Shown piece after piece: positions 4,389 through 37,205 of a stretch of 43,687 bases of DNA. The notes below the pieces were generated by a model. The model made no database searches, was not told the origin of the DNA, and saw only the letters and a program-made list of their open reading frames with translations. Origin of the DNA: Bacteroidaceae bacterium (GTDB lineage: Bacteria > Bacteroidota > Bacteroidia > Bacteroidales > Bacteroidaceae); NCBI GenBank assembly GCA_017645845.1, contig JAGCNQ010000086.1, positions 1 through 43,687 on the forward strand. The letters run 5' to 3'. A program made the translations under genes and the position numbers. Each line of letters begins with the position of its first letter. Positions within the stretch are counted from its first letter, which is position 1.

Positions 4389-6318
4389 AATAGAGTAGCC
4401 CCTCTAAATCTCCTCGATGGGAGGCTTTTGAGTCTTTAAGGTTCTTGGCAGGTTCTTGGCCGTCCTCTCCCCTTAGGGAATCTGGAGGGGGGACCGTCCA
4501 TTTAGCAATGAGGTCTTGCGAGGGCTTTTCGACCTCGAGTTTGTATTTCTTGATGATTTCGATAATCTGCTGCTGTATCTTGGCAGGAGCAACGCCTTGC
4601 AGGGTGCTTACCAAATTATAGCCGGCCTTGCGCAGAATGGGGATTATGTCGGCAGGAACGTCTTTCTCGAGGAAGAGCTCGTCCTTGTCGCGTGGAGCCT
4701 TCACTTCGGGCTTCATCTGGGGAAAGAAAAGGACTTCCTGGATGAATGGCTTGCCGGTCATCAACATAGCCAGACGGTCGATGCCGATACCGATGCCGCT
4801 CGTTGGAGGCATACCGTATTGGAGGGCACGCAGGAAGTCGTGGTCGATTACCATTGCCTCGTCGTCGCCCTTATCGGCAAGCTTCATCTGTTCGATGAAA
4901 CGTTCTTCCTGGTCGATGGGGTCGTTCAACTCGGAATAGGCATTGGCCAGTTCCTTGCCGTTCACCATCAGTTCGAAGCGTTCGGTCAGGCCGGGCTTTG
5001 AGCGATGCATCTTCGTCAGCGGGGACATCTCAACGGGATAGTCCGTGATGAAGGTGGGCTGGATGAAGGTGCCCTCGCATGTCTCGCCGAATATCTCATC
5101 GATGAGCTTGCCCTTGCCCATCGTCTCGTCAACTTCTACGCCGCACTTCTTAGCCACCTCGCGCATCTCTTCCTCGCTCATGCCATCGAGGTCGTAGCCT
5201 GTCTTTTCCTTGATGGCATCCAGAATGGGCAGACGGCGGAAAGGAGCCTTGAATGAGATAATCTTGCCGTCAATCTCTGTCTCGGGCTTGCCATTCACAG
5301 CGACGCAAATCTCTTCGAGGAGTTGCTCTGTGAAGGACATCATCCAGTTGTAGTCCTTGTAGCTGACATACAGCTCCATGCAGGTGAACTCGGGATTGTG
5401 GTTCTTGTCCATGCCCTCGTTGCGGAAGTTCTTGCCAATCTCATATACGCCTTCGAAGCCACCCACGATGAGCCGCTTCAGATAAAGCTCGGTGGCAATA
5501 CGCATATACATCGGGATGTTCAGGGCATTGAAATGCGTGATGAAAGGACGGGCCGTTGCGCCTCCGGCAATGGCCTGGAGAGTGGGCGTCTCAACCTCTG
5601 TGTAGCCGTGACGGTCGAAGAAAGCTCGCATGGTCTTGAGGATGACAGCACGCTTCAGGAATGTATCCTTCACGCCATCATTCACGACAAGGTCTACATA
5701 ACGCTGCCGGTAACGAAGTTCAGGGTCGTCGAAAGAGTCATAGACATTTCCTTCAGCATCTGTCTTAACGATGGGCAGAGGACGAAGACTCTTGGATAGC
5801 ACGGTCAGCTCCTGAGCATGAACACTAATCTCACCTGTCTGTGTGCGGAACACATAGCCCTTGATGCCGATGAAGTCACCCAGGTCGAGCAACTTTTTGA
5901 AGACGGTATTGTAGAGGACGACTCCCTCTAAATCTCCCCGAGGGGAGACTTCCGGGCTATTTTCTCTCCCTCGGGGGAGTTGGAGGGGGGCCAGCCCATC
6001 CCTCGTCAAGTACACCTGTATTCTTCCCTTGCTGTCCTGCAACTCGGCAAAAGCAGCTTTTCCCATGATGCGTTTCGACATAATACGGCCAGCGATGCAG
6101 ACATTTCGAGAGTTCTCCGGAGTGGCTGTCTCGCGAATGTCTTTGCCTTCTTCGTCCTTGCCGACAACGGGCAGGTCAACGAAGTTTTCCTTGATTTCAG
6201 TACTGAAAGCATTGGTTGGATATTCTGCTGCGGGATAAGGGTCAATTCCCAGCTCGCGCATCTGTTGCAGGTTGTTGCGACGGATTATCTCCTGCTCGCT
6301 CAGTTCAAGTATGTTCAT
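4303..6318 (-). CDS. lysS: lysine--tRNA ligase (class II), carrying two in-frame repeat-element insertions; 3' end extended 86 nt into gpsA
   Basis: 671-aa ORF. The N-terminus [30 protein letters not shown], the class II core (FRNEGMD..., [12 protein letters not shown]) and the Bacteroidales-type C-terminal extension ([11 protein letters not shown]...KKYKL) are all present. It is about 95 aa longer than I expect for the family, which the elements at 5924-5990 and 4399-4492 explain. Confidence 0.9.
4399..4492 (-). repeat. nested-hairpin palindromic element, copy A (94 bp) at the lysS 3' end / gpsA start junction
   Basis: Plus strand: cccctctaaatctcctcgatgggagg...cctctccccttagggaatctggagggggg. 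The termini CCCCTCTAAATCTCC and GGAATCTGGAGGGGGG are imperfect inverted repeats, and each arm holds a small hairpin. In gene sense it is translated as [31 protein letters not shown]. Confidence 0.8.
5924..5990 (-). repeat. nested-hairpin palindromic element, copy B (about 67 bp) inside lysS
   Basis: Plus strand: ccctctaaatctccccgaggggagacttccgggctattttctctccctcgggggagttggagggggg. It has two CTCCCC-n-GGGGAG hairpins flanked by inverted termini. Translated in gene sense it gives [23 protein letters not shown]. Confidence 0.85.
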
Positions 6319-6365
6319 CGATATTATTTACGATTTGACGATTTAATATTTACAAATTTCGCTTG

Positions 6366-6373
6366 CAAAGGTA
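6366..6373 (-). promoter_or_regulatory. -7 promoter box (TACCTTTG on minus strand) for lysS
   Basis: caaaggta within tttcgcttgcaaaggtacgaatta, 48 nt upstream of the ATG at 6318. Confidence 0.6.
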
Positions 6374-6417
6374 CGAATTATAATTCAAAAAACATAATTA
6401 AGGAATTCAAAATTATA

Positions 6418-7308
6418 TTATTTTGAATCGGAAGGGACTGTTGGCTCTGGCAGGGTGAGCTGCATAAGCTCCTCGAGTGAGCCGTTGAAGATGTTGCAAT
6501 CGACAAAACCCTTGATGCCGGAAACTTTGCCACAGTCGGTATGTTGCCAGAAAGTCCACTTTCCCTTATATTGGAGCTCCTCTACATAGTAATGGGCTAT
6601 CCAATAGGGATAGACATTAAATTCGGGGGTGTTCAGATAGTCAACCTTAAACTTGTACCCGGTATAGAGGATTGGCTTGACACCATATTCCTTTTCGACG
6701 ATATCAAGCCAAATCTTAACGTCGCGACGCAACTGGTCCGGAGTCAGGTCACCTTTCTTCTCAATATCAAGAACTGGTGGCAAGTCACCTGGTTCCAACT
6801 GAGCAATACTCAAATAATAGTCTGCTTGCTTCCTTGGGTTAATTCCAGGAACGAAGAAATGATAAGCGCCTCGTAACAAGTCATTCCGCTTCGCATTGGC
6901 AAAGTTTCTGTTGAAGTTATCATCCAATAGCTTTTCGCCTTCAGTTGCCTTGATAAAGACGAAACTGACGGGAGCGTTTCCGATGGAGGCATTACGCAGT
7001 TTCTCCCAGTTGATACGCCCCTGATAGTGACTGATGTCGATACCTCTTACCTCATAGCCTTCAGGATAAGTCGGTTCGCCATAAATCGCTCGCCAACGGA
7101 AGCTGAAAGGAGTGACGAAGAAGTGATAGAAGAGGCCTATGTAGGCAGCTGCGATGAGTAGGCCGCCAAACCATATCAACCAGGAAGGGAAGCCACGGAA
7201 GAAATGTAAGAAAGAAAGCCCCCTCCCTGCTCCCCCTCTTGGGGAGTGCTTCTTTTTTACTCTCTTAACAGAGGAAGAGCGGGAAGCGGACTTCTTTTTC
7301 ATGTTCAA
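6418..7308 (-). CDS. GH25 family muramidase (lysozyme) with N-terminal basic tail and transmembrane anchor
   Basis: 296 aa. GIDISHYQGRINWEKL...FVFIKATEG...DDNF matches the GH25 signature. A TM helix is present (WLIWFGGLLIAAAYIGLFY). It lies 40 nt downstream of pfp and is probably co-transcribed. Confidence 0.8.
   Translation of the reverse strand: MNMKKKSASRSSSVKRVKKKHSPRGGAGRGLSFLHFFRGFPSWLIWFGGLLIAAAYIGLFYHFFVTPFSFRWRAIYGEPTYPEGYEVRGIDISHYQGRINWEKLRNASIGNAPVSFVFIKATEGEKLLDDNFNRNFANAKRNDLLRGAYHFFVPGINPRKQADYYLSIAQLEPGDLPPVLDIEKKGDLTPDQLRRDVKIWLDIVEKEYGVKPILYTGYKFKVDYLNTPEFNVYPYWIAHYYVEELQYKGKWTFWQHTDCGKVSGIKGFVDCNIFNGSLEELMQLTLPEPTVPSDSK
7219..7246 (-). repeat. solo arm of the palindromic element family, inside the GH25 N-terminal tail
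   Basis: Plus strand: ccccctccctgctccccctcttggggag (CCCCTCC + CTCCCC-ctctt-GGGGAG). In gene sense it encodes SPRGGAGRG. Confidence 0.55.
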
Positions 7309-7348
7309 ATTATAAATTTACACTCCACCAAGGGGGAGTCAGAAGGGG

Positions 7349-9040
7349 CTATGCCTGTTCCAAAGCCAATGTCTTTGTACACTGGTCACACACTTCGCTC
7401 GGTCCCCAGTACTGGATGGGACCTGGATAAACGTAGCAAGTGTTCTTGGCCCACTCTTCACGCTTGCTTGCGAAGAACTTGAAGGGTGCACCGTCAAGCT
7501 CGACGAGAGCCTTACGGATAACGGGCTTCATGGCACCATTACGGCGCTCCATGTTCATCATCATCGTGATGGGCACACCGCCTGCAATCCATTCTGAAGC
7601 AGGAGCGGTCGTGTTCTTGATGACACTCATGTAGCCGGTTTTGCCGTTGGCAATCAGGCGGCTGGCATTGTAACCGAGGCTATAGCAGTAGTCGGCATCA
7701 TAGTTGCTGGGAGCAGCGCAACGTCCTTCGTAACCGAAGAAGTGGTGCTGGGGAGCGAACTTGCCGTTGTACTTGCTTTCCTTCTTCCATGCGTCGAGCT
7801 TCATGGCAACCATGGCGCTGAGCAGCTTCTCTGTCTCGATGAGGCTGACCTGCACGTTGCCGTGGGGGTCACGGTCGAGGCAAAGCTGACGCTCTACGTC
7901 TCTCGGCAGGCTCTCGAGGACTGCAAGGTTCTCAGGAGCAATATGGCTCTTCACGAAGGCCACCTGTGCGTCCTTGCTCTCGAACTCACGGCTCTCACCC
8001 GTTGCAGGGTCTGTGAGGACTTCGTTGAGCTCTGCGATGAGCTTCTTGATGGAAGGAACGAATTCAATCAGACCTTCGGGAATGAGGACAGTACCGAAGT
8101 TGTTGCCTTCTGCGGCGCGGTCAGCCACAATCTTTGCAATGTAGGTCACAACATCGTCAAGGCTCATGGCCTTCTGCTCGACCTCCTCGCTGATGAGGCA
8201 GATATTGGGCTGTGTCTCCAGGGCACACTCCAGGGCAATGTGGCTTGCGCTACGGCCCATCAGCTTGATGAAGTGCCAGTACTTGCGGGCGCTGTTGCAG
8301 TCACGCTGGATGTTGCCAATCAACTCGCTATAAGTCTTGCAGGCAGTATCGAAGCCGAAACTGGTCTCAATCTGCTCGTTCTTCAGGTCGCCGTCGATGG
8401 TCTTGGGACAGCCAATAACCTGTACACCATAGTTCTTGGCAGCATAGTATTCGGCCAGCACACAAGCATTGGTGTTGCTGTCGTCGCCACCGATGATGAC
8501 AAGCGCCTTGATGTCGAGCTTGCGCAGAATCTCAATGCCGCTCTCGAACTGAGCTTCCTTCTCGAGCTTCGTACGGCCGGAGCCGATGATGTCGAAGCCG
8601 CCAGTGTTGCGATAATCGTCAATGAAAGCGTCTGTGAACTCAACATACTTGTGGTCAACGAGACCGCCAGGTCCCATCAGGAAGCCATAGAGCTTGCTGT
8701 TCTTGTTGAGGGACTTAACGCCGTCATAAAGGCCGCTGATGACATTGTGACCACCAGGAGCCTGACCACCGCTAAGAATGATTCCGACGTTAAGACCCTC
8801 TAAATCTCCCTTAAAGGGAGACTTATTGTTCTCCGCCCCTTTAAGGGGAGGTTGGGAGGGGTCCGCCTCAAACGTAATAACAGGCATACCGTAGGTGTTG
8901 GGGAACATAGCCTTGATTTCATCTTGATTGCCAACGCTCTGAGTGGCAGCGCCCTCCACTGCCACAACGGGACCTTGCAAGGCCTTGGGAAGTTTGGGCT
9001 GATAGGCAGCACGAGCCACCTGAAGTGCACTTTTCTTCAT
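7349..9040 (-). CDS. pfp: diphosphate--fructose-6-phosphate 1-phosphotransferase (PPi-PFK) with one in-frame repeat-element insertion
   Basis: 563 aa. GIILSGGQAPGGHNVISG, GGFDIIGSGRTK, IIGGDDSNTNA and PKTIDGDL are canonical PFK/PFP motifs. Length and the N-terminus MKKSALQVARAAYQPKLPKAL match Bacteroidales Pfp. Confidence 0.9.
   Translation of the reverse strand: MKKSALQVARAAYQPKLPKALQGPVVAVEGAATQSVGNQDEIKAMFPNTYGMPVITFEADPSQPPLKGAENNKSPFKGDLEGLNVGIILSGGQAPGGHNVISGLYDGVKSLNKNSKLYGFLMGPGGLVDHKYVEFTDAFIDDYRNTGGFDIIGSGRTKLEKEAQFESGIEILRKLDIKALVIIGGDDSNTNACVLAEYYAAKNYGVQVIGCPKTIDGDLKNEQIETSFGFDTACKTYSELIGNIQRDCNSARKYWHFIKLMGRSASHIALECALETQPNICLISEEVEQKAMSLDDVVTYIAKIVADRAAEGNNFGTVLIPEGLIEFVPSIKKLIAELNEVLTDPATGESREFESKDAQVAFVKSHIAPENLAVLESLPRDVERQLCLDRDPHGNVQVSLIETEKLLSAMVAMKLDAWKKESKYNGKFAPQHHFFGYEGRCAAPSNYDADYCYSLGYNASRLIANGKTGYMSVIKNTTAPASEWIAGGVPITMMMNMERRNGAMKPVIRKALVELDGAPFKFFASKREEWAKNTCYVYPGPIQYWGPSEVCDQCTKTLALEQA
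8796..8861 (-). repeat. nested-hairpin palindromic element, copy C (66 bp) inside pfp
   Basis: Plus strand: ccctctaaatctcccttaaagggagacttattgttctccgcccctttaaggggaggttgggaggggt. Translated in gene sense it gives DPSQPPLKGAENNKSPFKGDLEG, immediately before the conserved NVGIILSGGQAPGGHN block. Confidence 0.85.
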
Positions 9041-9084
9041 GATTCTTGAGTTTATTTATTTATAGGTTTTTAATTTTTCGCGTG

Positions 9085-9092
9085 CAAAGGTA
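9085..9092 (-). promoter_or_regulatory. -7 promoter box (TACCTTTG on minus strand) for pfp
   Basis: caaaggta within tttcgcgtgcaaaggtacgaaaaaaaaa, 45 nt upstream of the ATG at 9040. Confidence 0.6.
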
Positions 9093-9102
9093 CGAAAAAA
9101 AA

Positions 9103-9134
9103 ATGAGGGAATGAAAGAATGAGGGAATGAAAAG
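9103..9134. repeat. tandem 8-mer word array (ATGAGGGA ATGAAAGA ATGAGGGA ATGAAAAG)
   Basis: Read directly from the sequence. It abuts the A-run next to the pfp -7 box. Confidence 0.65.
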
Positions 9135-9193
9135 TGATAATTAAAATATAATTTTATTTTTATTCCCAATAACTCCTACTTGTAAAAAAGGGA

Positions 9194-9223
9194 CCCCCCT
9201 AAATCTCCCCGAGAAGGATGGGT
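9194..9223 (-). repeat. degenerate solo arm of the palindromic element family (intergenic)
   Basis: Plus strand: cccccctaaatctccccgagaaggatggg. It shares the CCCTCTAAATCTCCCCGAGG terminus with copies A-C but no matching second arm was found. Confidence 0.45.
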
Positions 9224-9241
9224 GCGCCAGAGAGACTTCCT

Positions 9242-10204: not shown

Positions 10205-10231
10205 GGTATCAATGTTTATCGGTTCTGCGTA

Positions 10232-10239
10232 CAAAGATA
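10232..10239 (-). promoter_or_regulatory. -7 promoter box (TATCTTTG on minus strand) for the metallophosphoesterase
   Basis: caaagata in ctgcgtacaaagatacgaataat, 28 nt upstream of the ATG at 10204. Confidence 0.55.
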
Positions 10240-10342
10240 CGAATAATAATTCACAATCCATAATACTTCGCTTCTTTTCTCAAGAATGAAGGGGCAGTTT
10301 GGACAAAAGTTTCATTTTTTTTCTAAATCATGTAGTTTTTCG

Positions 10343-11989: not shown

Positions 11990-14900
11990 CTATTTTTTAA
12001 TGCGTTTTACTCCATTATCAATATAAATTCCTTTCTGAGGCTTGCCTGGGAGTTTCCGGCCTGAGAGGTCGTAATATTGGTGGGTACCGTCGCCATCGAT
12101 GGTGTGGATGACGGGGTTGATGCCCGTACCGTCCTCGTTTATGTCGCCCACATACTCGTCGGGCAATTTCTCCCAATCGGGATTGACGACATCCTCGCCA
12201 GCTGGCAGGTACTTGAACTTGGTTTCATAAGCATACGGGCCTTTGTACTCCAACGGAACGAAGTAGGACCGGAATTGCGGAATGTAGCTTGCACGATGGC
12301 TCTCTGTATCATTGTTAAAGGGTTTCCACTTACCGTCCTTCGTCGAAAGCCCGAAAGCGTGCATCTGGGTGCTCTCATCGTTGTCGATGACGCGGAAGGT
12401 GCCGCGCCACCAACCTACCAGGTCGTCAGGTTCTCCCCATGTCTCGAGGCTGGAGCTGACGATACTCTCCTCAACGTGCTCGTTGGGGTGTGCCAGCATC
12501 TTCACATTATCGGCATTGAGATTGAGGCTTCCATTCTCCACTACCAGCAGACAAGGCGTGCCGGCATTGATTACGGGTGCATCACCGATGAATACAAACT
12601 CAAGGTCTTCATTAACGGCAGCCAGTTGGTACAAACGGATCTGGCCTGCATCGAACTGCTCCCACAGGTCCTTCGTGTACGGCAGACAGACGGTGAAGGC
12701 GCAGCTGGTCCATGTTCCGTCGCCATTGTCGTTGGCCGCGAACTGACGGTCGTAGGCGACGTTCACCATATGGCCTCCGTATCGGTTCAGGGTCTCGCTG
12801 TTGTCGGCGAGGTCTGTCAGGCTGACATCGGCAATACCCCACAGGAGTCCTGGGTTGTCGATGCCACCGTCAACATGGGCGTAGGAAGCGGAGTTGGTAT
12901 TGTAATCGTAGCGGGTTCCGTTCTGGCCTACAAGGGAACTTGCATGGTTGAACATGTAGGCGGAAGTCTCCACCTTGTCCATCGTCCAGCCCTCGCCCAC
13001 GGTGATGGTGGTCAGCGCATAGTCGTTCTCGAACATCATCCGGACATTGGTCACGTTGCCGGTGTCGAAGCTGGTCAGGTTCAGGTCTTTCAACGACTGG
13101 CAATTCTTGAACATTCCGTTCATGTTGGTGACTTGAGTGGTGTTGAAGTTGGACACGTCGATGTCGGCCAGGTTTCGGCATTGGAAGAACATGTACCGCA
13201 TGTTTGTTACAGACCGCGTGTCGAAACTATCGATGTTCAGTTCCTGCAGGTTGGCGCAGTTGCTGAACATGTACTCCATATTCGTAACCTGCGATGTCTG
13301 CCATCCGTATGGGTTGAGCCACTCGAGTGCGGTGCAGCCACTGAACATGTAACGCATGTCTGTGACATTGCTGGTGTCGAAGAATCCCAGGATTATCTCT
13401 TTGAGCGAAGAGCAGCTCGCGAACATGGAGACCATGGTGGTCACTTCGGATGTGCGGAGGTTATGCAGACCATCGATGTCTGTCAGGTTCCTAAAGTTGC
13501 GGAACCATCCGTAGCAGCTGGTGGGGCGAACGCGTCCGAAGCTCTCGTGGAACACCACATGCTCTACCTGGCTGTTCACCTGCTTCCATCCGGGCGAATC
13601 GGCTCCTGTCATCAGGACGTCAGCACCCTTCCATAGCATCGTCACGGCCTGTCCATCGTAGCTGTCTCCGACATTCACGCGGCTTTCGGGAACGGTGAAG
13701 TGAAGCGTCTTGGTGTCCTCGCACCAGAAGGCGTAGGCCACGTCGAAGTACCCTGTCAGGGGTTCGATGGCGTCATAGTCGGTACCATCTGTGTAGTTGA
13801 CGCAGACGCTGCTGAAGTCGTCGGTTACCTCATTGTCCATCACGAAGTAGGCCTGGAATCCGGGCAGGATGTAGCTCTCGGCACGGCTGTCGGCCACGAA
13901 GAGCTTCGCCTGGTCGCTCTCGGAGAGGGTGACGGGCATGTAGCTGCCATAGAGTGCCACGCCGTTGTAGTCAGCACTATCGGCCTTGGCGGTGGTGATG
14001 TCTATGTCTGAGAAGGTCATCTCGTCGGGAGCACCGTTGGTCCATCTGATGATGGCAGGTTTTCCGGCGGGAGCTGCCTCACTTTCATTGCAGAAGAGCG
14101 TCAGGGTGCCGTTCTCTTTCTTGGCACCGGCAAACTCCAACAGCTCGCCACTCCATTTCTCTGCCATCTGTGCGGTCATCTCGAAGGGCAGACAAAGTGC
14201 CTGCCAACCGTTAGCCGCTGTCGTGGTGCGGTTCAGTACCACCTGCTGGGCTGTAAAGTCATACAAGGGTGCGAAGCCATACCGGTCATCAAGTATCAGC
14301 TTGTTGCAGATGCCGCCCGAAACCACGTTGTCGGCAGGCTGGGCTTTGCCGGCAGGCAGATAGACGATGGCCCCTTCGTTCAGACCGAAGAAGGGCGTGT
14401 CGGGTGTGGTACGGTCTATGGTGAGGGGTTTCAGTCCCAAGCAGCGAGTCATGTCGAGTGCCGTAATCTCGTGTCCCACGCTGCTGAAGGCATTGGCATC
14501 AACAGAGCGGACAGCCAGAGGAACTTCATCGCCGTCTATGTTGACGGTAATGCTGTCGGCAACCTCAACGATGCCGCCCTCACCTGTGTAGCGGGCAAGG
14601 GTAACATCTTCAAAGTCAACAATCTTATTGTAAAGGACAGAATAGGAGGCGTACTCGTCATCTACTTCCATATACTCGGAGGGATTGTCCATGCTGATAT
14701 CCACCTCCACATCGGTCACGCCGACGCTGGTAGCCTCAAGGGTAAAGTATGCCTTCATGGCGTGTATGCAGCTGTCGGCGCCCATTGAATTGCGAATCGT
14801 CATCAGCATCTTATCGCTATTCCTTAAGTCGAGCGATGCATAGCTGGGATGGAAGGTGACATGTCCGTCGCTGCTGGTCTCCTCGACCAGTGAGTTGTCG

Positions 14901-17900
14901 AAGAAGGTTACGTTCTCAAAGGTGGGGTTAGGTATGTCTTCACCTTTGTTCCAGCTTACCAGATAGGGCTTGCCGGCCTCTATCTCATAGGCATTTTCGA
15001 AGGCGAGGTTCAATTGTCCCGTAGCGGCATCGAACGATGTGTATTCGGGGTCGAACTCGAAGATGGTGGCATTCTTCAACGGAGACTTCTTGATGTCCCT
15101 GCCCAGGATGTTGAACGGCAGGGTCACCAGGTTCATGCGCCCGTCCTTGTAGAAGGTGCGCCCGCCTAATGTCACGCTGTTGACGACACGGCCATGGTAC
15201 GACTGTATCGTCCCGTTGTTGTCGCCGTCGGCGAAGAGTATCACGTCATCCACCGTGGGCGGGACGTCGCTGGGATTCAGGTAGTAAGCCAGGAGGTCCT
15301 TTAGGCCGTTGTGGTAGAAATAGACATCACCCTCGGCTATCGGGTCGCCGATGGCAGCCATGAAGAAGCCATAGACCCCGTTGCGCATGCCAAAGACATA
15401 GTGGTGCTTGGTGCCGATGACTGTCCCGTCGGAGACTTGCAGGATGCCCTGCCCCGCGATGTAGGAATCGTCGGGTCGCGTCAGGGGGATATTGTACAAG
15501 GCTCCGGGGGTGTCGCTCTTCAGCAGCATCACGTTGCCCATGGGACATTCCTCCAGGGCGGTCATCGTCACCAGCTGCGTGTCTTCGTTTGCATTCACGA
15601 CCTCAAGGGCCTGTATGTTCAGCAGACCGATACCATCGAAGTCGATGGGGCTCGTGATGAGGCGTGGCACATAGGTTTGCCCTTCCGGGAACTGGATGCT
15701 CTGGCACAACTCGCCGCCGATAGTGATGGAATCGCCCAGGCGGTAGTTGCCGGACGTGCCATAGACGTATATCCTGAGTTCTACCTTGCCATAGAGGCAC
15801 AGCTCCTCAGCCTTGGACGGAGCCTTGGGCTTCAGGGTGTCGAGCTTCATGACGTTCTGCGGCACGTTTTGGAAGATGGTGTCGGCCTTGTTGCCCCGCT
15901 CGTCGATGAGCATGAGGCGGACATTCGCCTTCGTGCCAGTATTGACGGGCATCGTGTAGAGGTTTGTCGTCTTGGGCTTGAAGGAGTAGCCCTCCTTCAC
16001 TTCGAAGGTTACGCACATGTAGCGGTCTTCGTCGAACTGTGCCGGCATCTCGATGAGCGACGTGCCGGTGGCGTGAACGCTGGGCGTCACCTTCAGGTTG
16101 CCTCGGTTCTCAACGTCGGAGAGGTTGTAGAGCAGACAGCCCGACTCCCCTACTTTCGACTGAGTGGTGATGGTGCTCTCGGCCTTGTTGACGGTAGGCC
16201 GTATCATCAGCTCGTTGTCGCCGCCCGGATAGGAAGCCTCCAGGTAGATCAGTTCCATGTCCTCGCCAATCTCCACTACCACGGAATCAAGGTCTGTGCG
16301 GTAGTAGTGCATGGTGGCAAGGCAGTTATTTCCCACTTTGGAATAGATGAAGTCCTTGGAGCCTGCGATTCTGACATTTGAAAGCCGTTTCGTGGTCAGC
16401 AGCTTGTAGGTGGCACCGTACTTGGCAGGCACAGTCATCTTCGTCCCCTTGCCTACGAAGGTGTTGCCCTCGGCCTTTCGCAGGTCGTTGGTGATGAGTC
16501 CCTTGGTGGCATCGATGGTCATTGCCACATCGATGTAATAGGATGCGAACTCGGTGGGCATCACGTAGGGGAAACGGGCATCCGCGCCATGCTGGTTGCG
16601 GAACAGAGCCATGCTGTCGGGCAGGTCGAAACGCCAAGTGACGGTGACGGTATTGTCGCCCATGTCCTCCTCGTTGAGAGCTGTGACGGGCACCATCTCC
16701 ACGTCTTCCGTCAGGGTCTCCGTGGTCACCTTGTTGTCCTGCAGCAGATTGTCCACGAGATAGGTCTTGCCATTGCTGCCCGTCCAGCTTTGCACGGTAT
16801 TGGCAAAGGCTTTCTGCTTAATATAATCATAGTTATAGTAGTTCTGTGTGATGCTGACGACGCCCTTGCTGTCGGCATAGCGCACCAGCGGAGAGCCCCT
16901 GAAGGTCAGTTTCTTGTGCTCGATGTAACGGGCCTCCACCTGCGTGTTCTTGCCGACGATCAAGGAAAGCGAACTGGTCGTATTGTTCTGCTTCACGCCG
17001 TCCACATACCACTCCAGGTCGTAGCCGACACCCACGGTAGCAAAGAAAGTAAGAATGCTGCCGCGCGACACCACATCATCGAGAGCCAGGCATTTGTTCC
17101 CGTTCCACACCTCCACATCGGGCCACCACTCGGGCTTGCCAGTCTGTGTGACATGGATGATGTAGTCACCCGAGACGAAATTGAACCTTTCAAACATCTC
17201 CTGGCTCAGTATGCAGGCCTGGAAAGCGGCGTGCTCCCTGCCCTTCGTTTCCGAGAAACTGGGGCCATGCACCTCGGTGGTGTACATATCCTCTATGGTG
17301 CTTGCACTGTACAGACCTTGCAGGGTACAAGCCGGATAAACCTTCTGCTCGGGAGCAGCGGCAGACACCGTCACATCATGGAACACGGGAGACTGCAAGT
17401 CCCCGCCAGGCGTATTCCAAAGACCGTAATACAGCTTGCCGGCCTCAATCTTGCTGACAGCAGGGCCTATCCTCAGGCGCATCTCCCTGTCCATCACCTG
17501 GATGTTGGCTATCTCGTGAATCTCGGCACCTGCCAAAGGCGTAACATAGATGTTGTTGATGGTGAACGGCACGCAGAGTGTAAAGCCCTCGCGCACCAGC
17601 TTCAGGCCTTGCAGGGTCACGTCGCACACAGACCCGTCGGCAGCCTCTAACCAAGCCGAGTTGTCCCCATTGGCATTAAGAGTGAGCGAACTCAGGTCAC
17701 CAACGAAGTCGGCAGGAAGTTTGTCCGACTTGCCCTTGTAGCCTTCCAGCTGATCGGAGAACACATGCCAGCGCGGCTTGTTACCGAACCGGTTCTCCCC
17801 TACTTGCAGCTTGCCTGCCGTCGGGTAGCAATACACATCATTCGCATTGGCGTCGAGGAAGGCATTTTTCCCGATGCTGGTCATGCTCAGGGGGATAGTG

Positions 17901-19099: not shown

Positions 19100-19136
19100 A
19101 AAACTGATTTTATTTATATTATTTATATTTTGCTCG

Positions 19137-19144
19137 CAAATATA
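19137..19144 (-). promoter_or_regulatory. -7 promoter box (TATATTTG on minus strand) for the giant gene
   Basis: caaatata in tgctcgcaaatatacgcaaattt, 38 nt upstream of the ATG at 19099. Confidence 0.55.
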
Positions 19145-19392
19145 CGCAAATTTCATGGAAAAATAATATCATCTTTGAAAAAAAAAGAAAAGCATCATTT
19201 TCTTTCAACACATCCACGCAAAAACGCCATCAGCAGCACGAAGTTTGAAAGCGTTACAATTGTAACAGTTTTGTTTCAAAGCGTGAATAGCAAGGTGGGG
19301 GACAATTGTCCCCCACCCTTTTCGGGAGAAGGTCACAAAAAGGGTCTGATTTTACCTCTTAAACATTTTAACATTTATTTTTGGCGTTTTCG

Positions 19393-19468: not shown

Positions 19469-19508
19469 GAAAATTAAAAAATTAAAAAATTGAAAAATTA
19501 TAAAATTA
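19469..19508. repeat. tandem 8-mer word array (GAAAATTA AAAAATTA AAAAATTG AAAAATTA TAAAATTA)
   Basis: Read directly from the sequence. It lies inside the predicted 5' UTR of the 19544 gene. Confidence 0.7.
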
Positions 19509-19543
19509 AATTGAAGCCTTTTCACTCTTTATATATCTGACTT

Positions 19544-19807
19544 ATGAAACGCAAAGACCTGAAAAAACACATCAACTATCTCTGCGGCGAACTGCTGGCA
19601 GAATGTATCGCTGCTGACGGATTCAGCAAGAAGGATAACAGGCAGGACATTGAGAATGTCATGCTCGGCATCCTCAGGATGCAGAACGACTGGATCTGCC
19701 GCCTCTCGCATGTGGAACCCGGCAGCACCCGCCTGTTCTTCAAGAAACTGAAGGAAGACATGCAGAAGGGAACCGATGAGATTATCGAACAGATACAAAA
19801 CCTTTGA
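19544..19807 (+). CDS. small conserved-looking helical hypothetical protein (87 aa)
   Basis: The ORF has genome-typical C/G third positions and a charged helical composition. The opposite-strand ORFs (19529-19798, 19576-19761) look like shadows. Confidence 0.6.
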   Translation: MKRKDLKKHINYLCGELLAECIAADGFSKKDNRQDIENVMLGILRMQNDWICRLSHVEPGSTRLFFKKLKEDMQKGTDEIIEQIQNL

Positions 19808-19848
19808 AAAGTTGAAAAGTTGAAAAGTTAAAAAGTAAAAAAATAAAA
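19806..19848. repeat. tandem 8-mer word array (GAAAAGTT x3, decaying to AAAAAGT AAAAAAAT AAAA)
   Basis: Read directly from the sequence. It fills the whole spacer between the 19807 stop and the ATG at 19849. Confidence 0.7.
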
Positions 19849-20400: not shown

Positions 20401-20401
20401 A

Positions 20402-20433
20402 AGATTATGAAATTATAAGATTATAAAATTATA
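20402..20433. repeat. tandem 8-mer word array (AGATTATG AAATTATA AGATTATA AAATTATA)
   Basis: Read directly from the sequence, in the spacer upstream of the 20476 gene. Confidence 0.7.
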
Positions 20434-20475
20434 AAATGAAGATTTTTCACCTTTTTACTCTTTAGCACTTGGCTT

Positions 20476-23425: not shown

Positions 23426-23460
23426 AATTCTTAATTCTTAACTCTTAATTCTTAATTCCC
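23426..23460. repeat. tandem 7-mer word array (AATTCTT AATTCTT AACTCTT AATTCTT AATTCCC)
   Basis: Read directly from the sequence, just after the 23415 stop. Confidence 0.7.
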
Positions 23461-25635: not shown

Positions 25636-25640
25636 CTAAA

Positions 25641-25668
25641 ATTCTTCATTCTTAACTCTTAATTCATT
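25641..25668. repeat. tandem 7-mer word array (ATTCTTC ATTCTTA ACTCTTA ATTCATT)
   Basis: Read directly from the sequence, in the spacer between ygiQ and the 25681 gene. Confidence 0.65.
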
Positions 25669-30593: not shown

Positions 30594-30618
30594 GTAGTAA
30601 AATACTCAGTTTCGCGTG

Positions 30619-30626
30619 CAAAGGTA
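30619..30626 (-). promoter_or_regulatory. -7 promoter box (TACCTTTG on minus strand) for the amidase-MlaD operon
   Basis: caaaggta in tttcgcgtgcaaaggtacgaataag, 26 nt upstream of the ATG at 30593. Confidence 0.55.
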
Positions 30627-30721
30627 CGAATAAGCGAGCACAATACAAAAGAAGAATCAAAGTTTTTTCTTTTTATTGTCGAGCGGAAGTACTTTAGACG
30701 CATGTCAAAGGTACTATATAT

Positions 30722-30761
30722 AATTCAAAATTCAAAATTAATAAATTCAAAATTATGAAAA
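30722..30761. repeat. tandem 8-mer word array (AATTCAAA ATTCAAAA TTAATAAA TTCAAAAT TATGAAAA), followed by a C/T-rich word run to about 30845
   Basis: Read directly from the sequence, in the divergent intergenic region between the amidase gene and asnA. Confidence 0.6.
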
Positions 30762-30980: not shown

Positions 30981-32018
30981 ATGAGTAAACTCTTGAAGCC
31001 TGCTGACTACAAGGCTTTGCTGAACTTGAATCAGACAGAGCAGGCAATTAAGAATATCAAGGACTTCTTTTTAGGCAGCCTCAGTACAGAACTGAGGTTG
31101 CGCCGTGTCACAGCCCCTCTTTTCGTGCTTCGCGGATTGGGCATTAACGACGACCTCAACGGTGTGGAGCGTCCTGTCAGCTTCCCCATCAAGGATATGA
31201 ACGATGCTGTGGCCGAGGTAGTACACTCTCTTGCAAAATGGAAGCGTGTCACGCTTGCTGAATACAAGACGCAGCCAGGCTTCGGTATTGTGACCGATAT
31301 GAACGCCATCCGAGCTGATGAGGAGTTGGACAACATCCACAGCCTCTATGTCGATCAATGGGACTGGGAACGTGTGCTCCTGGCCGAGAACCGCAACGAA
31401 GCCTATTTGCGCCGCATCGTCAGCAAGATTTACAGCGCCATCCTGCGCACAGAGTTTTACATCTGCGAGACTTATTCCCAACTCAAACCCTTCCTGCCTG
31501 AAGATATCCATTTTATCCACAGCGAGGAACTGTTGCAGATGTACCCCGACAAGACGGCAAAGGAGCGCGAACACCTCATCTGCCAGAAATACGGAGCCGT
31601 ATTTATAATAGGTATAGGTGGTAAACTCAGCAATGGGAAAGTGCATGATATGCGCGCTCCCGACTATGATGACTGGAGCACCCCGAACGAAAGCGGTTTC
31701 TATGGACTCAACGGTGACCTGCTCGTCTGGTATCCTCTGCTCAATCGCAGCATCGAACTGAGTTCTATGGGTATCCGTGTGGATAAGGAAGCACTTCTCC
31801 GACAGCTTGCTCTTCAGGGTAAGGAAGAACGCAAAGAACTATACTTCCACCAGCGTCTTCTTGGAGACACACTACCTCTGACCATCGGTGGAGGTATCGG
31901 ACAAAGCCGTCTTTGTATGGTGCTCCTGCACAAAGCACATATTGGTGAAACACAGGCCAGTATCTGGCCAAACGAGATGCGAAAAGAATGCAGAGAAGCA
32001 GGAATGCCGTTGATTTAG
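30981..32018 (+). CDS. asnA: aspartate--ammonia ligase (asparagine synthetase A)
   Basis: 345 aa. The blocks TEQAIKNIKDFF, VTAPLFV, DEELDNIHSLYVDQWDWE, GGGIGQSRLCMVLL and ASIWP are typical of AsnA. Confidence 0.9.
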   Translation: MSKLLKPADYKALLNLNQTEQAIKNIKDFFLGSLSTELRLRRVTAPLFVLRGLGINDDLNGVERPVSFPIKDMNDAVAEVVHSLAKWKRVTLAEYKTQPGFGIVTDMNAIRADEELDNIHSLYVDQWDWERVLLAENRNEAYLRRIVSKIYSAILRTEFYICETYSQLKPFLPEDIHFIHSEELLQMYPDKTAKEREHLICQKYGAVFIIGIGGKLSNGKVHDMRAPDYDDWSTPNESGFYGLNGDLLVWYPLLNRSIELSSMGIRVDKEALLRQLALQGKEERKELYFHQRLLGDTLPLTIGGGIGQSRLCMVLLHKAHIGETQASIWPNEMRKECREAGMPLI

Positions 32019-34054
32019 TTGTTTGGCGACAGTTTGCACGCAAGGGCTATAGTGCTTTTGCGAGCCTTCATAAGCAGATTTGTATCGGTATCCTTAGTGT
32101 TGCCACATTAAGTGTGGCGGCGAGAACCCCATCTGGCTCCCCCCTAGAGAGGAAGGAACATAAAGTCTCTTCTCTAAGGGGAGATTTTGAAGGGGATGGA
32201 GATATAGAAGAATCTTTGGCGGAGTTAACCGTGAGCGGCACGATGGCTCCGCTCTCGCAGTTGCAGGCAGCACGAATTGTCTGTGTGCTCACCCGTCAGG
32301 AAATAGAACAAGCGGCGGCGCAGAGTCTTAATGACATCTTGAAATTAGTTACCGGCGTGGATGTCCGGCAGCGCGGTGGCTTTGGTATTCAGACGGACAT
32401 CAGCATCGATGGCGGCACATTCGAACAGGTCACGATTCTGCTCAACGGCATCGACATCAGCAATCCCCAAATAGGACATCTTTCAGCAGACTTCCCCGTC
32501 AGCATCAGCGACATAGAACGCATTGAGGTGCTCGAAGGTGCAGCAAGTCGTGTGTATAGCGGACAGAGCTTCGGCGGGGCCATCAACATCATTACACGGC
32601 ACGACCGCGAGCAAAGCATCGAGTTTGAGGGCAGAGGCGGTTCCTTCGGTACTGCGGAGGGTGAGGCTCGCATCTCACTCACAACTAAACGTTTCAGTAA
32701 CCGCATCAGCGGAGGAGGTGGCAGAAGCGATGGCGGAACGCTCAACAGTTCCTGGCAAAAGGGACAGCTCTACTATCAGGGTGATTATGAAGATGATGCT
32801 TTGCGCCTCGACTGGCAGTTCGGTTTTTCGAAGAAGAGCTACGGGGCCAACACTTTTTACAGCGCCAACTATCCCGACCAATACGAGCGTAACCAACGCC
32901 TCATGACCAGCATCAGCGCAGAGACAAAGGGCAAATTTCACTTCACGCCTCAGGTCTTCTGGCAGCGCTCACACGATAACTTTGAGTTAGTTTGCGGCAC
33001 TTCTTTCGGTGAGAATTTCCACAGGACAGACGTTTATGGTCTCAAGGCTGGCGGATACGTCAACTGGTCTTTCGGCAAAACTGCCGTCTCTGCACTGCTT
33101 AGACACGAAGGCATCCTCAGCACCAATCTCGGCAAAGACACGCCTCCAGAAGGGAATTTGGGAGTCTATACCCGCAGCGACAACCGCACAACGGTTTCCT
33201 TTGGCCTCGAGCACAACATTCTCTTGAAGCGTTGGACGATTTCAGCCGGATTGATGGCAAGTATGACATCCAGCATCGACCATCTTTTTCGCTTCTATCC
33301 GGGCATCGATATCGCTTATCGTCCCGCATCAAACTGGAAAGTATTGCTCTCCTACAACAAAGGGTTCCGTTTGCCGTCTTTCACAGAGCTATATTATAAG
33401 AGCCCGACGCATGAAGGAAACCGAGACTTGAAACCCGAGCACAACCACTCCCTATCGCTCGGAACAGAGTACAGACGGTGTGGCATCGAGGGCAGCATCC
33501 GAGGCTTTTATCATCGTGGAACACAAATGATTGACTGGGTAATGTATTCGGCGGATGATATCTACCATACTGCGGCTTTTGACCTCGATAATGTGGGTGT
33601 TCAGGTTCATGGAAAAGTTTCACCTTCCGAGCTTCTCGGCCATGATACATGGGTATATTCTCTCTCTGCTGGCTATACCTTTATCCACCAGAACAAGCAC
33701 GATGCCGAGGGTGTCGTCAAGAGCAATGCCCAAATGGAGTATTTGCGGCACAAGTTTGTCGCAAGCCTGACGCACCGCATTATAAGCCGGCTCTTAATGA
33801 GTTGGAATTTCCGTTGGCAGGAACGGGTGGGCTGTTATCTGAGCGACGGAAAACTAGTCCCCTATCATCCTTATGCGATGCTGGATGCCAAGTTGCTATG
33901 GGAAGCAACGCGATACCAACTTTATGTCCAGGCAACCAACATCACCAATCACAGCTACTACGACCTCGCAGCAGTCCCCCAGCCCGGCATCTGGATAATG
34001 GCAGGCGCACGCCTAAAGATTTTCAAGAAATCACGAGCCACCCCATCCTTTTAA
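31988..34054 (+). CDS. TonB-dependent outer-membrane receptor with an in-frame repeat-element insertion after the signal region
   Basis: 688 aa. It has plug motifs (SLNDILKLVTGVDVRQRGGFGIQTDISIDGG, IERIEVLEGAASRVYS), beta-barrel repeats and a terminal aromatic region. The only in-frame start upstream of the conserved RKGYSAF..L.VATL leader is the ATG at 31988, which overlaps asnA by 31 nt. Confidence 0.8.
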   Translation: MQRSRNAVDLVVWRQFARKGYSAFASLHKQICIGILSVATLSVAARTPSGSPLERKEHKVSSLRGDFEGDGDIEESLAELTVSGTMAPLSQLQAARIVCVLTRQEIEQAAAQSLNDILKLVTGVDVRQRGGFGIQTDISIDGGTFEQVTILLNGIDISNPQIGHLSADFPVSISDIERIEVLEGAASRVYSGQSFGGAINIITRHDREQSIEFEGRGGSFGTAEGEARISLTTKRFSNRISGGGGRSDGGTLNSSWQKGQLYYQGDYEDDALRLDWQFGFSKKSYGANTFYSANYPDQYERNQRLMTSISAETKGKFHFTPQVFWQRSHDNFELVCGTSFGENFHRTDVYGLKAGGYVNWSFGKTAVSALLRHEGILSTNLGKDTPPEGNLGVYTRSDNRTTVSFGLEHNILLKRWTISAGLMASMTSSIDHLFRFYPGIDIAYRPASNWKVLLSYNKGFRLPSFTELYYKSPTHEGNRDLKPEHNHSLSLGTEYRRCGIEGSIRGFYHRGTQMIDWVMYSADDIYHTAAFDLDNVGVQVHGKVSPSELLGHDTWVYSLSAGYTFIHQNKHDAEGVVKSNAQMEYLRHKFVASLTHRIISRLLMSWNFRWQERVGCYLSDGKLVPYHPYAMLDAKLLWEATRYQLYVQATNITNHSYYDLAAVPQPGIWIMAGARLKIFKKSRATPSF
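32127..32195 (+). repeat. nested-hairpin palindromic element, copy F (69 bp) inside the TonB-dependent receptor gene
   Basis: Plus strand: ccccatctggctcccccctagagaggaaggaacataaagtctcttctctaaggggagattttgaagggg. It has the same architecture as copies A-C and the same orientation relative to the host gene. It is translated as PSGSPLERKEHKVSSLRGDFEG. Confidence 0.75.
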
Positions 34055-34849: not shown

Positions 34850-34863
34850 AACTGCTTATTTGT

Positions 34864-35088: not shown

Positions 35089-35244
35089 ATCTATACGCCT
35101 ATTATACAAACTTTGCGGTGTAAAGTTACTGATTTTTCATCAAAATAGAGCAGGAATGACAGACTTTAACATGCCATGATGCACATTTCGCTTCCATACG
35201 AGCAAAATCAACATTTTTCTGTAAGATAAATTGGAATTTACATA

Positions 35245-36069: not shown

Positions 36070-36092
36070 ATAAATTCTGATTTACCTGTCTG

Positions 36093-36100
36093 CAAATTTA
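36093..36100 (-). promoter_or_regulatory. -7 promoter box (TAAATTTG on minus strand) for the TlpA-like gene
   Basis: caaattta in ctgtctgcaaatttacgg, 24 nt upstream of the ATG at 36069. Confidence 0.5.
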
Positions 36101-36610
36101 CGGTTTTGTTCCCACTTTACAAAATAATTCCATTATTTTCTTCTCAGAAAAAGATACCCCAGAAACCAGGAAAATTATAGTTGCGGATTTTACAATCTGT
36201 TTTCCATTTTGACAAATGGCCAAATGACCACGCTATTTTCCTAAAATTGAAAGTAGGGGTGTCAACAGTAATGACGCCCCTCGTTGTGGTTTGATGATGT
36301 TTCTTGTTTTGGTGTTTTACGAAGGCATCATTCTGGTGACAAAATCGAGTCTTGAAGACCTCTGTTTCCAGCAACTAAAATTCTTTGAATTTTAATTTCT
36401 CGTTTTAAGCCGTTCTGAGCGCGTTTCTCAGGTCGGGGTGATGCAATATACCCCGAAGGGGTTTGAAGCGATTCTGGGGCAAATTAGAGGGGAAAGTCGG
36501 GGCGTCCGTGAAAAGTTTGTTGCCGCGAGGCTGCCGAGGAACTTCTCCTGGTAGGAGGCCTTGTAAAGGAGGACATGTGAAAATGTAAAAAAAAAGAAAA
36601 AGTGAGAAAT

Positions 36611-36761
36611 GTATCAGTTGTATCAGTGTATCAGTTTGAAAAAAGATGGTCTATACTTCTTTATAATATTATATATATTATTAATATATAGATAGTTATA
36701 TATATAATAAGAGGAGAATGAGACCTCAAAAAACAAACTGATACAACTGATACACTGATAC
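36611..36761. repeat. 151-bp composite palindrome: inverted triple GTATCAG heptamers flanking an AT-rich core
   Basis: Left arm: gtatcagttgtatcagtgtatcagtttg (36611-36638). Right arm: caaactgatacaactgatacactgatac (36734-36761). These are reverse complements except for a swapped T/TT spacer. Inner inverted GAKGGTCT/AGACCTC boxes flank a 68-nt core with very high AT content by eye (36653-36720). Confidence 0.8.
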
Positions 36762-37002
36762 AAAACCAAATTCATTTCTTTATAAATAGCAGAAAATCAA
36801 TAAAATACGACGTAACTAAACATACAGTACCTAAGATGCCAAAGCTCGAAAAAGGGACAAAATGCATCAAAATCCTGCTCTTTTAGGCCTCAAAAGACGT
36901 ACGTGAACCCCTTGTTCCGATGTTTTTCCCTATATTTGGCGCACACATCAGCAATTATAAATTTCAATCTCAAGGCCTCATTTGAAGGTTTTTTGTAGCA
37001 AT

Positions 37003-37112
37003 ATAGCCGTTTTATTCATAGAATAGGCCGTTTTACTCACAGAAAAAGGCGTTTTCACTCACAGAAAAAGGACGTTTCACATAACAAGAAACGAGACTTC
37101 ACACACACTTGT
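37003..37112 (+). repeat. five tandem direct repeats with exact 22-bp period (iteron-like)
   Basis: The five units are atagccgttttattcatagaat / aggccgttttactcacagaaaa / aggcgttttcactcacagaaaa / aggacgtttcacataacaagaa / acgagacttcacacacactt. Units 2 and 3 are nearly identical (2 substitutions plus a 1-nt indel compensated within the unit), and similarity decays outward. Confidence 0.75.
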
Positions 37113-37165
37113 GTTTGCAGGTTCGAGGAACGGACACATGCAGACGCCCGGAACTCGCACGTGCA

Positions 37166-37205
37166 GGGTCGGGACCCCCTCCCGACCCTCCCCGAGGGGA
37201 GGAGA
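37166..37205 (+). repeat. solo 5' arm of the palindromic element family plus adjacent 9-bp hairpin (intergenic)
   Basis: GGGTCGGGA-ccccc-TCCCGACCC is followed by CTCCCCGAGGGGAGGAGAAAGG. Compare the gene-sense 5' arm of copy B: CCCCCCTCCAACTCCCCCGAGGGAGAGAAAA. Confidence 0.55.

Follow-up and report, generated by a model that had tools for sequence, protein, structure and literature searches.

Palindromic elements in genes of a rumen Bacteroidaceae bacterium as probable gene-less relatives of DUF559 endonuclease cassettes

A contig of 43,687 nt from a Bacteroidaceae bacterium (JAGCNQ010000086.1, assembly GCA_017645845.1), analysed over its whole length and referred to here as the window, carries a family of short palindromic elements within and beside conserved genes such as lysS and pfp. 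These elements are probably (we put the probability at about 0.78) miniature members, devoid of an open reading frame (ORF), of a family of selfish cassettes that carry a DUF559 endonuclease gene. Such a cassette is composed of a GCCCCnCYYAA terminus, a C/G hairpin, a DUF559 gene of ∼120 codons, a second hairpin and a TTRGRGGGGGC terminus, the second end being an inverted copy of the first. As judged by homology, DUF559 is a Vsr-like member of the PD-(D/E)XK endonuclease family with a putative role as a nuclease. Short elements were shown to lie at host sites that elsewhere hold full cassettes, with the same ends and the same left/right asymmetry.

The repeating unit of the family is ∼33 nt long and consists of a C/G hairpin and a G-rich terminus. 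In a full element a spacer separates two units in inverted orientation, the two halves being inverted copies of each other, and the short elements possess the two ends and a spacer of 10–70 nt only. In the sense of the host gene the order is C-rich terminus, hairpin, spacer, hairpin and G-rich terminus, the latter ending in GGGAGATTTAGAGGG. Using a covariance model of the unit (R1), a total of 12 units was detected in the window, corresponding to five full elements of 66–135 nt (designated E1 to E5) and two solo units (S1 and S2).

DUF559 genes bracketed by the units

Scanning of one genome per species with the exact pattern TCTCCC-N(2-8)-GGGAGATTTAGAGGG yielded at least 120 loci amounting to 871 kb of DNA, in five of which (L034, L015, L067, L093 and the pseudogene L069) inverted units stand on both sides of a DUF559 gene. 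In L034, which originates from Mucilaginibacter, the two inverted units are separated by 430 nt and enclose a DUF559 domain (PF04480, E 1.9e-32), and the whole block of unit, DUF559 and unit lies entirely in frame within LeuRS; the other four loci are from Prolixibacteraceae, a Shapirobacteria metagenome assembly and two assemblies that are labelled Gammaproteobacteria or have no lineage note. The DUF559 gene fills the spacer exactly, with ∼5–25 nt to spare on each side. All-against-all clustering of the ORFs from the at least 120 loci revealed no other gene family recurring near the units besides the multi-copy ABC-ATPase and histidine-kinase families, and no recurrent repetitive extragenic palindrome-associated tyrosine transposase (RAYT) or other transposase was found near units in the 871 kb.

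In a reverse test, a DUF559 alignment was used to collect 80 metagenomic loci, these being the best matches to seeds that had been found via the units. A perfect C-rich hairpin of at least 6 bp was present within 220 nt upstream of DUF559 in 69 of the 80 loci (86%) and downstream in 59 (74%), as compared with 5.9% of control windows on the same contigs, and the density of hairpins was 4.09 per kb in the DUF559 flanks versus 0.32 per kb in the controls. The two ends of a given cassette are alike (median similarity 0.86, with identical loops in 23/44), whereas the ends of different cassettes differ widely. Phage contigs had distant DUF559-like genes only, and none of these 22 possessed such hairpins. 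The DUF559 profile matched the PDB entries 3HRL (1e-29) and 3R3P (1.2e-3), the latter being the catalytic domain of the homing endonuclease I-Bth0305I. Free-standing relatives of 122–128 aa are common in Bacteroidaceae and Prevotella metagenome assemblies. No account of this arrangement was found in the searchable literature (open-access papers and bioRxiv), and a paper on miniature transposable elements of Thiomargarita as well as a survey of PD-(D/E)XK nucleases had no bearing on the association of units with DUF559.

The 80 cassettes are spread over 31 host contexts. For 47 of the 80 DUF559 genes, a single open frame reaches at least 300 nt past both sides, and internal stop codons are absent from all 80 DUF559 domains. 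Pfam analysis showed that DUF559 splits RecG, MetH, CinA, a DegT aminotransferase, MetRS, an epimerase, a Type ISP restriction enzyme, GH31 and LeuRS, being located between the two helicase domains in RecG and between the B12 cap and the B12-binding domain in MetH, and that it is also fused to the N-terminus of guanylate kinase. The junctions read ...YN|PAPSK... and ...DLEGA|EYAY..., and the catalytic-type D, E-x-D-G, R and N positions are conserved in 47/47 embedded copies and the H position in 46/47. No Hint or intein family was detected by Pfam in 10 embedded host proteins.

Fixed insertion sites recur across lineages, namely LeuRS sites A and B and the sites in RecG, MetH and CinA. LeuRS site A, which lies between NWIGKS..F and IEVFTTR, was found in three alternative states that are always in frame: tandem heptamers (L128 and L132), a short element of ∼26–31 aa (L129–L131) and a full DUF559 cassette (L136, L154, L184, L202, L167 and L173).

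The ends of such cassettes are nearly identical to units of the window. In two rumen Bacteroidaceae contigs (L261 and L262), a cassette with the left end GCCCCCCTCCAACTCCCCCGAGGGTGAGAG and the right end AAGTCTCCCCTCTGGGAGATTTAGAGGGAATC is placed between ilvB and ilvN. Comparison of E2 with the L261 cassette revealed agreement at the left end for 24 of the initial 25 bases and at the right end for 30/32, with the same left/right asymmetry, and the reading direction of E2 in lysS corresponds to the sense direction of the L261 DUF559 gene. Furthermore, E2 agrees at 30/30 positions with a unit beside DUF559 in L207, S1 at 19/20 with a unit upstream of DUF559 in L207, and S2 at 29/30 with a unit 36 nt upstream of DUF559 in the rumen locus L206. 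L143, L206, L207 and L261 are free-standing examples. At gene junctions translation of the upstream gene runs into the left unit, which supplies its tail, and an ATG near the 3′ end of the cassette restarts the downstream gene through the right unit, as seen for ilvN in L261, gpsA in L127 and the GH25 gene at E3 in the window.

A second right-type unit with the variant sequence CTCCCCCTCGGGGGAGCCGGTGGGGGGCC directly follows the right end of the ilvB–ilvN cassette (L261:2880–2950), and two left units are present in tandem in L132; units can therefore stack, perhaps via nested or successive insertions. Four free-standing DUF559 proteins of ∼125 aa (P0249, P0306, P0310 and P0328) have been named ‘5-methyltetrahydrofolate--homocysteine methyltransferase’ or ‘guanylate kinase’ by the Joint Genome Institute, and such names may have been transferred from host proteins with an embedded DUF559 domain. 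Many DUF559 genes lie on contigs of ∼600 nt, and in view of this size assemblies may break at the repeats.

The pattern scan also bears on the range of the family. An initial annotation of the window, prepared from its sequence, had described the palindromes as a dispersed family and likened them to the palindromic elements of Rickettsia, with no equivalent known to it from Prevotella or Bacteroides. The at least 120 loci in other genomes established that further copies exist beyond the window, and this setting proved not to be peculiar, as the family spans Bacteroidota and reaches other phyla. Among the matches listed, the Bacteroidota are represented by Mucilaginibacter, Chitinophagaceae, Prolixibacteraceae, Paludibacteraceae and Prevotella/Bacteroidaceae from rumen metagenomes, and other groups by Nostoc, Hyella, Desulfuromonadales, Patescibacteria, Poribacteria and assembled genomes labelled Gammaproteobacteria. 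A strict detector applied to the 871 kb recovered 57 pairs and 110 solo units, of which 9 and 21, respectively, lie well inside long open frames. Thus ∼80–85% of the copies are outside long open frames, and residence within genes is the minority state. The proposed likeness to Rickettsia elements held with respect to in-frame read-through in conserved genes, absence from close orthologues and polymorphism.

Elements of the window and their host genes

All 12 unit matches in the window scored at least 19 bits (E ≤0.01) with R1, the next best match reaching 11.6 bits, and these scores include 11 units that belong to the 50 on which R1 was built (11 from the window and 39 from elsewhere), the unit at 7319–7351 being the sole match outside this training set. 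The 15-mer GGGAGATTTAGAGGG occurs nine times in the window when up to three mismatches are allowed, as opposed to 0.95 expected, and none of 100 shuffles reached nine occurrences. The four full copies reported in the initial annotation (here E1, E2, E4 and E5) were all recovered to within a few bases, and two of the solo arms listed there, 9194–9223 and 37175–37205, correspond to S1 (9191–9223) and S2 (37173–37205). A third arm, 7219–7246, had been taken as solo and in fact pairs with the previously missed unit at 7319–7351 to form the fifth full element, E3, and a weak trace suspected at 36466–36493 found no support in the unit covariance model (E >10).

With regard to architecture, the order of termini, hairpins and spacer and the inverted relation of the halves were as originally described, but the lowest-energy RNA fold is predicted to be mostly one long hairpin and not two nested ones. 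The z-scores of the predicted folds range from −2 to −5, except for E1 with only −0.2, and a more stable fold is predicted for the antisense strand of the elements. No Rfam family reached its gathering threshold in the window, and a permissive Rfam scan of two elements gave only matches to generic microRNA-precursor hairpins, far below threshold.

Three elements lie within coding sequence. E2 (5920–5992, minus strand, 73 nt, 28.2 and 21.5 bits for its two units with R1) is located in lysS (4303–6318, minus strand), in a loop of the anticodon-binding domain of LysRS, and residues 110–141 of LysRS, which include the E2 peptide, remained unaligned against solved LysRS chains. E4 (8792–8864, minus strand, 73 nt, 29.8 and 20.5 bits) is inserted in pfp (7349–9040, minus strand), encoding a pyrophosphate-dependent phosphofructokinase of 563 aa (548 aa in most relatives), just ahead of the conserved NVGIILSGGQAPGGHN motif. 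Its peptide, DPSQPPLKGAENNKSPFKGDLEGL, represents extra residues ahead of the first PFK-core strand, as judged by alignment to the solved structure 1KZH. E5 (32124–32197, plus strand, 74 nt, 21.1 and 21.2 bits), the most degenerate element, is found in the gene of a TonB-dependent receptor (31988–34054, plus strand), between the signal peptide and the plug domain (Pfam Plug, residues 94–198), and encodes the peptide TPSGSPLERKEHKVSSLRGDFEGD. AlphaFold models of the Pfp and LysRS proteins of the window were unusable for mapping the inserts (mean pLDDT, the predicted local distance difference test score, of 45.8 and 41.7, respectively). A relative of Pfp with 743 aa (P0121), which outscored all other matches, combines an isochorismatase domain (PF00857) with PFK, which may reflect a gene fusion or an artefact of gene calling.

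The other two full elements remodel gene ends. E1 (4396–4494, minus strand, 99 nt, 20.4 and 23.7 bits), with a left unit at 4462–4494 and a right unit at 4396–4428 in gene sense and a spacer of 40 nt, is situated at the 3′ end of lysS, 8 nt ahead of the start of gpsA, and its spacer contains an exact 11 nt duplication (AGGTTCTTGGC twice, 4439–4460). The open frame of lysS in the window encodes 671 aa, the natural end being at approximately residue 608 inside E1. Thus the earlier statement that all four copies reside within ORFs without introducing stops is valid for E2, E4 and E5, and E1 sits on the natural stop of lysS. E3 (7217–7351, minus strand, 135 nt), made up of units at 7217–7249 (minus strand, 25.5 bits) and 7319–7351 (plus strand, 19.3 bits) and a 69 nt spacer, starts on the stop codon of pfp. 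The gene downstream encodes a GH25 lysozyme-like protein (6418–7308, minus strand), whose start codon falls in the E3 spacer and whose first ∼30 codons are inside E3, the right unit being translated to HSPRGGAGRGL. The predicted fold of E3 has a free energy of −56.9 kcal/mol (z −4.9). Both solo units are intergenic and on the minus strand: S1 (24.5 bits), which has a degenerate hairpin, lies directly 3′ of the stop codon of a Metallophos gene and upstream of pfp, and S2 (33.6 bits), which has a perfect 7 bp hairpin, is located upstream of a gene encoding a fasciclin-domain protein.

As had been noticed from the start, all copies of the window have the same orientation and are read in the same frame, giving S-P-x-G-(D/G)-x-(E/G)-G over the right unit. 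In E1, E2, E4 and E5, however, stop codons are absent from just one of the three sense frames (and from one or two antisense frames), and therefore the shared frame reflects survivorship. The orientation alone is informative, the frame being largely a filter; by chance a common orientation would be expected with a probability of ∼1/36, and the direction is that of the DUF559 gene in the parent cassette. In other genomes the same sense frame was favoured by units inside open frames of at least 600 nt (22/43), albeit not exclusively. The R-G-D present in several peptides had already been regarded as a by-product of GGGGAGAT, in keeping with which relatives read GGDLEG, RGELEG or LGDLEG instead.

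Comparison with relatives confirmed that the segments are absent from orthologues of LysS and Pfp, as had been stated in the initial annotation. LysRS relatives of 82–96% identity include alleles of 589–591 aa with the plain loop TRDALAQGEDTTLYN, and many other LysRS alleles have different inserts at exactly the position of E2; at the DNA level three of these were variants of the palindromic architecture and one consisted of tandem heptamers. Likewise, the Pfp site exists in three states, i.e. plain 548 aa alleles with ITFEAGEQKPLEPFNVG, palindromic variants and a heptamer-repeat insert. At both loop sites, orthologues that are >90% identical either lack inserts or carry other variants.

Contig L208 is conspecific with the window and is fully syntenic with it at 97.7% identity over 19 kb. 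E2, E3 and S1 are identical in the two, and at the pfp site of L208 heptamer repeats are present instead of E4. L208 also has E1, with lysS terminating within the element (..AKWTAPL*), a spacer that is 8 nt shorter and a second AGGTTCTTGGC copy that is not intact, and the divergence of E1 between the two contigs exceeds that of the surrounding DNA. The 64 aa extension of LysRS into gpsA in the window hinges on a difference of 1 nt in a run of C (4486–4492), and E1 is therefore best described as sitting on the stop of lysS. In relatives, lysS ends in ...ATWTA*, and in more distant ones it overlaps with gpsA, no element being present there. E5 and S2 were unchanged in strains 99.9% and 98.6% identical to the window, E5 being identical in the same-species strains L265 and L266 and S2 in L266.

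Tandem heptamers were found to occupy the exact in-gene sites of elements in alternative alleles (L124:10330–10400, L208:10170–10215, L128 and L132). Their units are GGACAAC/TCAATGK in LysS, ACAGACA in Pfp of the same species, and YAATCAC and YCAAGAG in LeuRS, and the arrays are in frame, encoding peptides such as TTDNGQQ. These repeats may represent footprints or targets, or else simply another type of insertion that is tolerated. In general, heptamers were not enriched near units in other genomes (5/132 versus 6/360 controls), the same in-gene sites being used in four cases.

Several other repeats were observed in the window. Its intergenic regions contain many short tandem arrays with a period of 7–8 nt and differing unit sequences (287–307, 6326–6353, 9098–9133, 19470–19510, 19804–19849, 20395–20437, 23426–23458, 25640–25665, 30722–30754, 37291–37332 and 43667–43687), which recall the heptamer repeats of cyanobacteria. 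The sequence TTTCGCGTGCAAAGGTACGAA is present in five copies (261–293, 6357–6389, 9076–9108, 10223–10255 and 30610–30642), at least three of which are a few tens of bases upstream of minus-strand starts (lysS, pfp and an amidase-like ORF). Its reverse complement contains TAccTTTG, which matches the −7 promoter box known for Bacteroidota, and TTTCGCGTGCAAAGGTACGAA is probably an ordinary consensus of strong promoters. Inverted arrays of approximately three copies of TGTATCAG(T), at 36610–36636 and 36736–36763, surround ∼100 nt that are almost all A/T, one 9 nt copy of the array being missing in L266. Three tandem copies of a 21–22 nt unit, AGCCGTTTTACTCACAGAAAA, lie at 37005–37080, ∼100 nt from S2, and L266 has one fewer. 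A minus-strand ORF of 2388 aa (11990–19156) has internal 78 nt periodic repeats, and its counterpart in a syntenic relative is a giant LRR_5/DUF285 repeat protein.

Origin and mobility of the elements

The tight packing of cassettes between host genes suggests that they have no promoter of their own. They are oriented along the host genes, in DNA that is transcribed, and lie at gene junctions or as in-frame loops of conserved proteins; the endonuclease would therefore be made as a part of the host protein or in coupling to it. Pro/Gly-rich linkers, which loops tolerate, are encoded by the runs of C and G at the ends, and such runs may be favoured because Pro/Gly linkers result in any frame. 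That the DUF559 nuclease itself drives mobility in a homing-like manner is a tentative proposal, to which we would give somewhat less than even odds. In such a mechanism the nuclease would break or nick an unoccupied site or an ORF-less element, repair would copy in the filled copy, and the ∼30 bp units would provide homology for ectopic conversion. Rare new sites would arise through break repair, which would account for missing native codons and absent target duplications. Short forms may be generated through loss of the gene between the inverted units. The copies of the window would then be passive, representing loop insertions of ∼24 aa (E2, E4 and E5), a C-terminal tail (E1) and the start of a downstream gene (E3), and their peptides are presumably retained in the host proteins.

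A number of points weigh against the view that the elements of the window descend from DUF559 cassettes. The DUF559 gene is absent from the window and from ∼60 kb of DNA of the same species, and hence no autonomous partner was seen there. The 80 loci of the reverse test were best matches to unit-derived seeds, and therefore the association holds for a subfamily of DUF559 only, whose nuclease activity, target and mobility are, moreover, putative. All strains of the species that were seen carry E2, E5, S1 and S2, recent movement being evident only at pfp. The inserted segments are, as originally suggested, optional and polymorphic within the species, but they are not clean insertions: native loop codons are replaced (GEQKPLEPF is missing in Pfp and NGEDTT in LysRS), target-site duplications were not visible at the LysS, Pfp and LeuRS junctions, and no clean, isogenic empty site was recovered. 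Finally, units without an ORF far outnumber DUF559 genes (5 of the at least 120 loci), and across host contexts the similarity of DUF559 is only weakly correlated with that of the ends.

The last two points bear on a history with the reverse order of events, which fits the data as well and which we regard as unlikely, yet as the most serious of the alternatives. The palindromes would have come first as an independent repeat similar to repetitive extragenic palindromic (REP) sequences and bacterial interspersed mosaic elements (BIMEs), DUF559 genes would be secondary invaders homing into the spacer, comparable to insertion sequences that target REP sequences, and the copies of the window would be empty homing sites. 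It is only in this order that such a history differs from descent from the cassette. The great excess of solo units and ORF-less pairs and the weak coupling of DUF559 identity to end sequence speak in its favour, as does the exact fit of the gene in the spacer with a few nucleotides to spare on each side. Descent from the cassette is favoured, though not decisively, by the lack of any other candidate mobilising gene recurring near the units in the 871 kb, by the covariation of both ends within each cassette, and by the fact that short elements retain the orientation and the left/right asymmetry of the cassette.

The possibility that the hairpins are selected by the host as terminators, mRNA stabilisers or protein-binding sites, without being mobile and with an incidental link to DUF559, is very improbable. 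E1, E3 and S1 do follow stop codons, the predicted folds are stable, and most copies elsewhere lie outside long open frames; nevertheless, copies inside lysS, pfp and the TonB receptor gene cannot serve as terminators, only TTT follows the hairpin, and Rfam gave no match. In addition, the presence or absence and the turnover of variants at identical sites in near-identical genomes, together with a ∼13-fold excess in the hairpin density of DUF559 flanks over other parts of the same contigs, are difficult to reconcile with a host function. A role as terminators in particular was rejected on account of the in-gene copies and the short T run, and inteins were rejected as neither a Hint domain (Pfam, 10 host proteins) nor the junction residues were present in the embedded cassettes. 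Even less credible is the idea that the LysRS and Pfp segments are ancient loops specific to the lineage, with a mutual resemblance that is due to composition only. It would agree with the finding that the inserts fall in loops of variable length among homologues, but not with the existence of alleles >90% identical that lack the segments, with the palindromic DNA common to unrelated genes and intergenic sites, or with the identical 30 nt units beside DUF559 genes in other organisms.

Whether the cassettes amount to a selfish DNA of an undescribed class is, in our estimation, evenly balanced. Such a class would consist of promoter-less DUF559 cassettes that are inserted in frame and retained in the protein like non-splicing inteins, in hosts including LeuRS, MetRS, RecG, MetH and CinA and in organisms ranging from Bacteroidota to cyanobacteria, Desulfuromonadales and candidate-phyla bacteria, and that leave ORF-less copies behind. 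If so, DUF559, which is very common in databases as ‘endonuclease domain-containing protein’, would gain a role as the engine of a selfish element. Besides introns and inteins, there would be a third route by which endonuclease genes survive in essential genes, the endonuclease being tolerated as a translated loop domain between flexible linkers encoded by its own ends. The elements also cause length variation in aminoacyl-tRNA synthetases and glycolytic enzymes and remodel gene ends, as E1 removes the lysS stop and the lysS–gpsA overlap and E3 supplies the start codon of the GH25 gene. The positions of the Pro/Gly-coding palindromes indicate where conserved proteins tolerate insertions, a possible guide for protein engineering, and polymorphic copies are strain markers for rumen Bacteroidaceae.

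Comparison with known systems

Rickettsia palindromic elements are likewise short palindromes that lie in frame and without stops in loops of conserved proteins and that also occur between genes. The likeness is one of behaviour: the present elements are set apart by their rumen Bacteroidaceae host, i.e. another phylum, by their smaller size (66–135 nt), by C/G-tract units that are shared across several phyla, and by ends that bracket a DUF559 gene. To our knowledge, no protein gene is associated with the Rickettsia elements. Mobile G+C clusters and translationally bypassed ‘byp’ elements are present in yeast mitochondria, some of them being optional and in frame (var1). These are also short, G+C-rich, palindromic mobile inserts in coding sequence, although in another domain of life; byps are skipped by the ribosome, whereas the elements of the window keep an open frame, which argues for their translation.

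The REP, BIME and REPIN–RAYT systems resemble the present family in having units of ∼30 nt (a tag and a G+C hairpin) that occur singly or as inverted pairs and are mostly extragenic, and in that a single small gene for the presumed mobilising enzyme is bracketed by them. In REP palindromes, one end carries a conserved tag, GTAG or CGTC (Di Nocera et al., 2013; PMC3733652), whereas the units described here carry GCCCCnCYYAA and TTRGRGGGGGC termini without either tag. The bracketed gene encodes a PD-(D/E)XK DUF559 nuclease in place of an HUH Y1 (IS200-like) transposase, and both the copies and the gene itself can lie in frame within coding sequence. Miniature inverted-repeat transposable elements are similarly small and non-coding and share terminal inverted repeats with a longer, protein-coding relative. 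In the present family, however, no target-site duplication is visible at the LysS, Pfp and LeuRS junctions, native codons are replaced, and the relative encodes a nuclease domain without a known transposase or integrase.

Inteins are in frame as well, but in the absence of a Hint domain from the 10 host proteins the DUF559 insert apparently stays in the protein. Homing endonuclease genes and inteins both use fixed positions near conserved motifs and have occupied and unoccupied alleles, as was found here, and Vsr-like (EDxHD) homing endonucleases such as I-Bth0305I contain a related nuclease domain (3R3P, E 1.2e-3). The cassettes differ from homing genes by the lack of an intron ribozyme or intein, by conserved palindromic ends and by abundant ORF-less copies at many unrelated sites. 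Some cassettes are free-standing, and the location of 47 of the 80 in frame within host ORFs departs from the classical placement of homing genes. Of the systems compared, the cassette is closest to a Vsr-like homing endonuclease gene.

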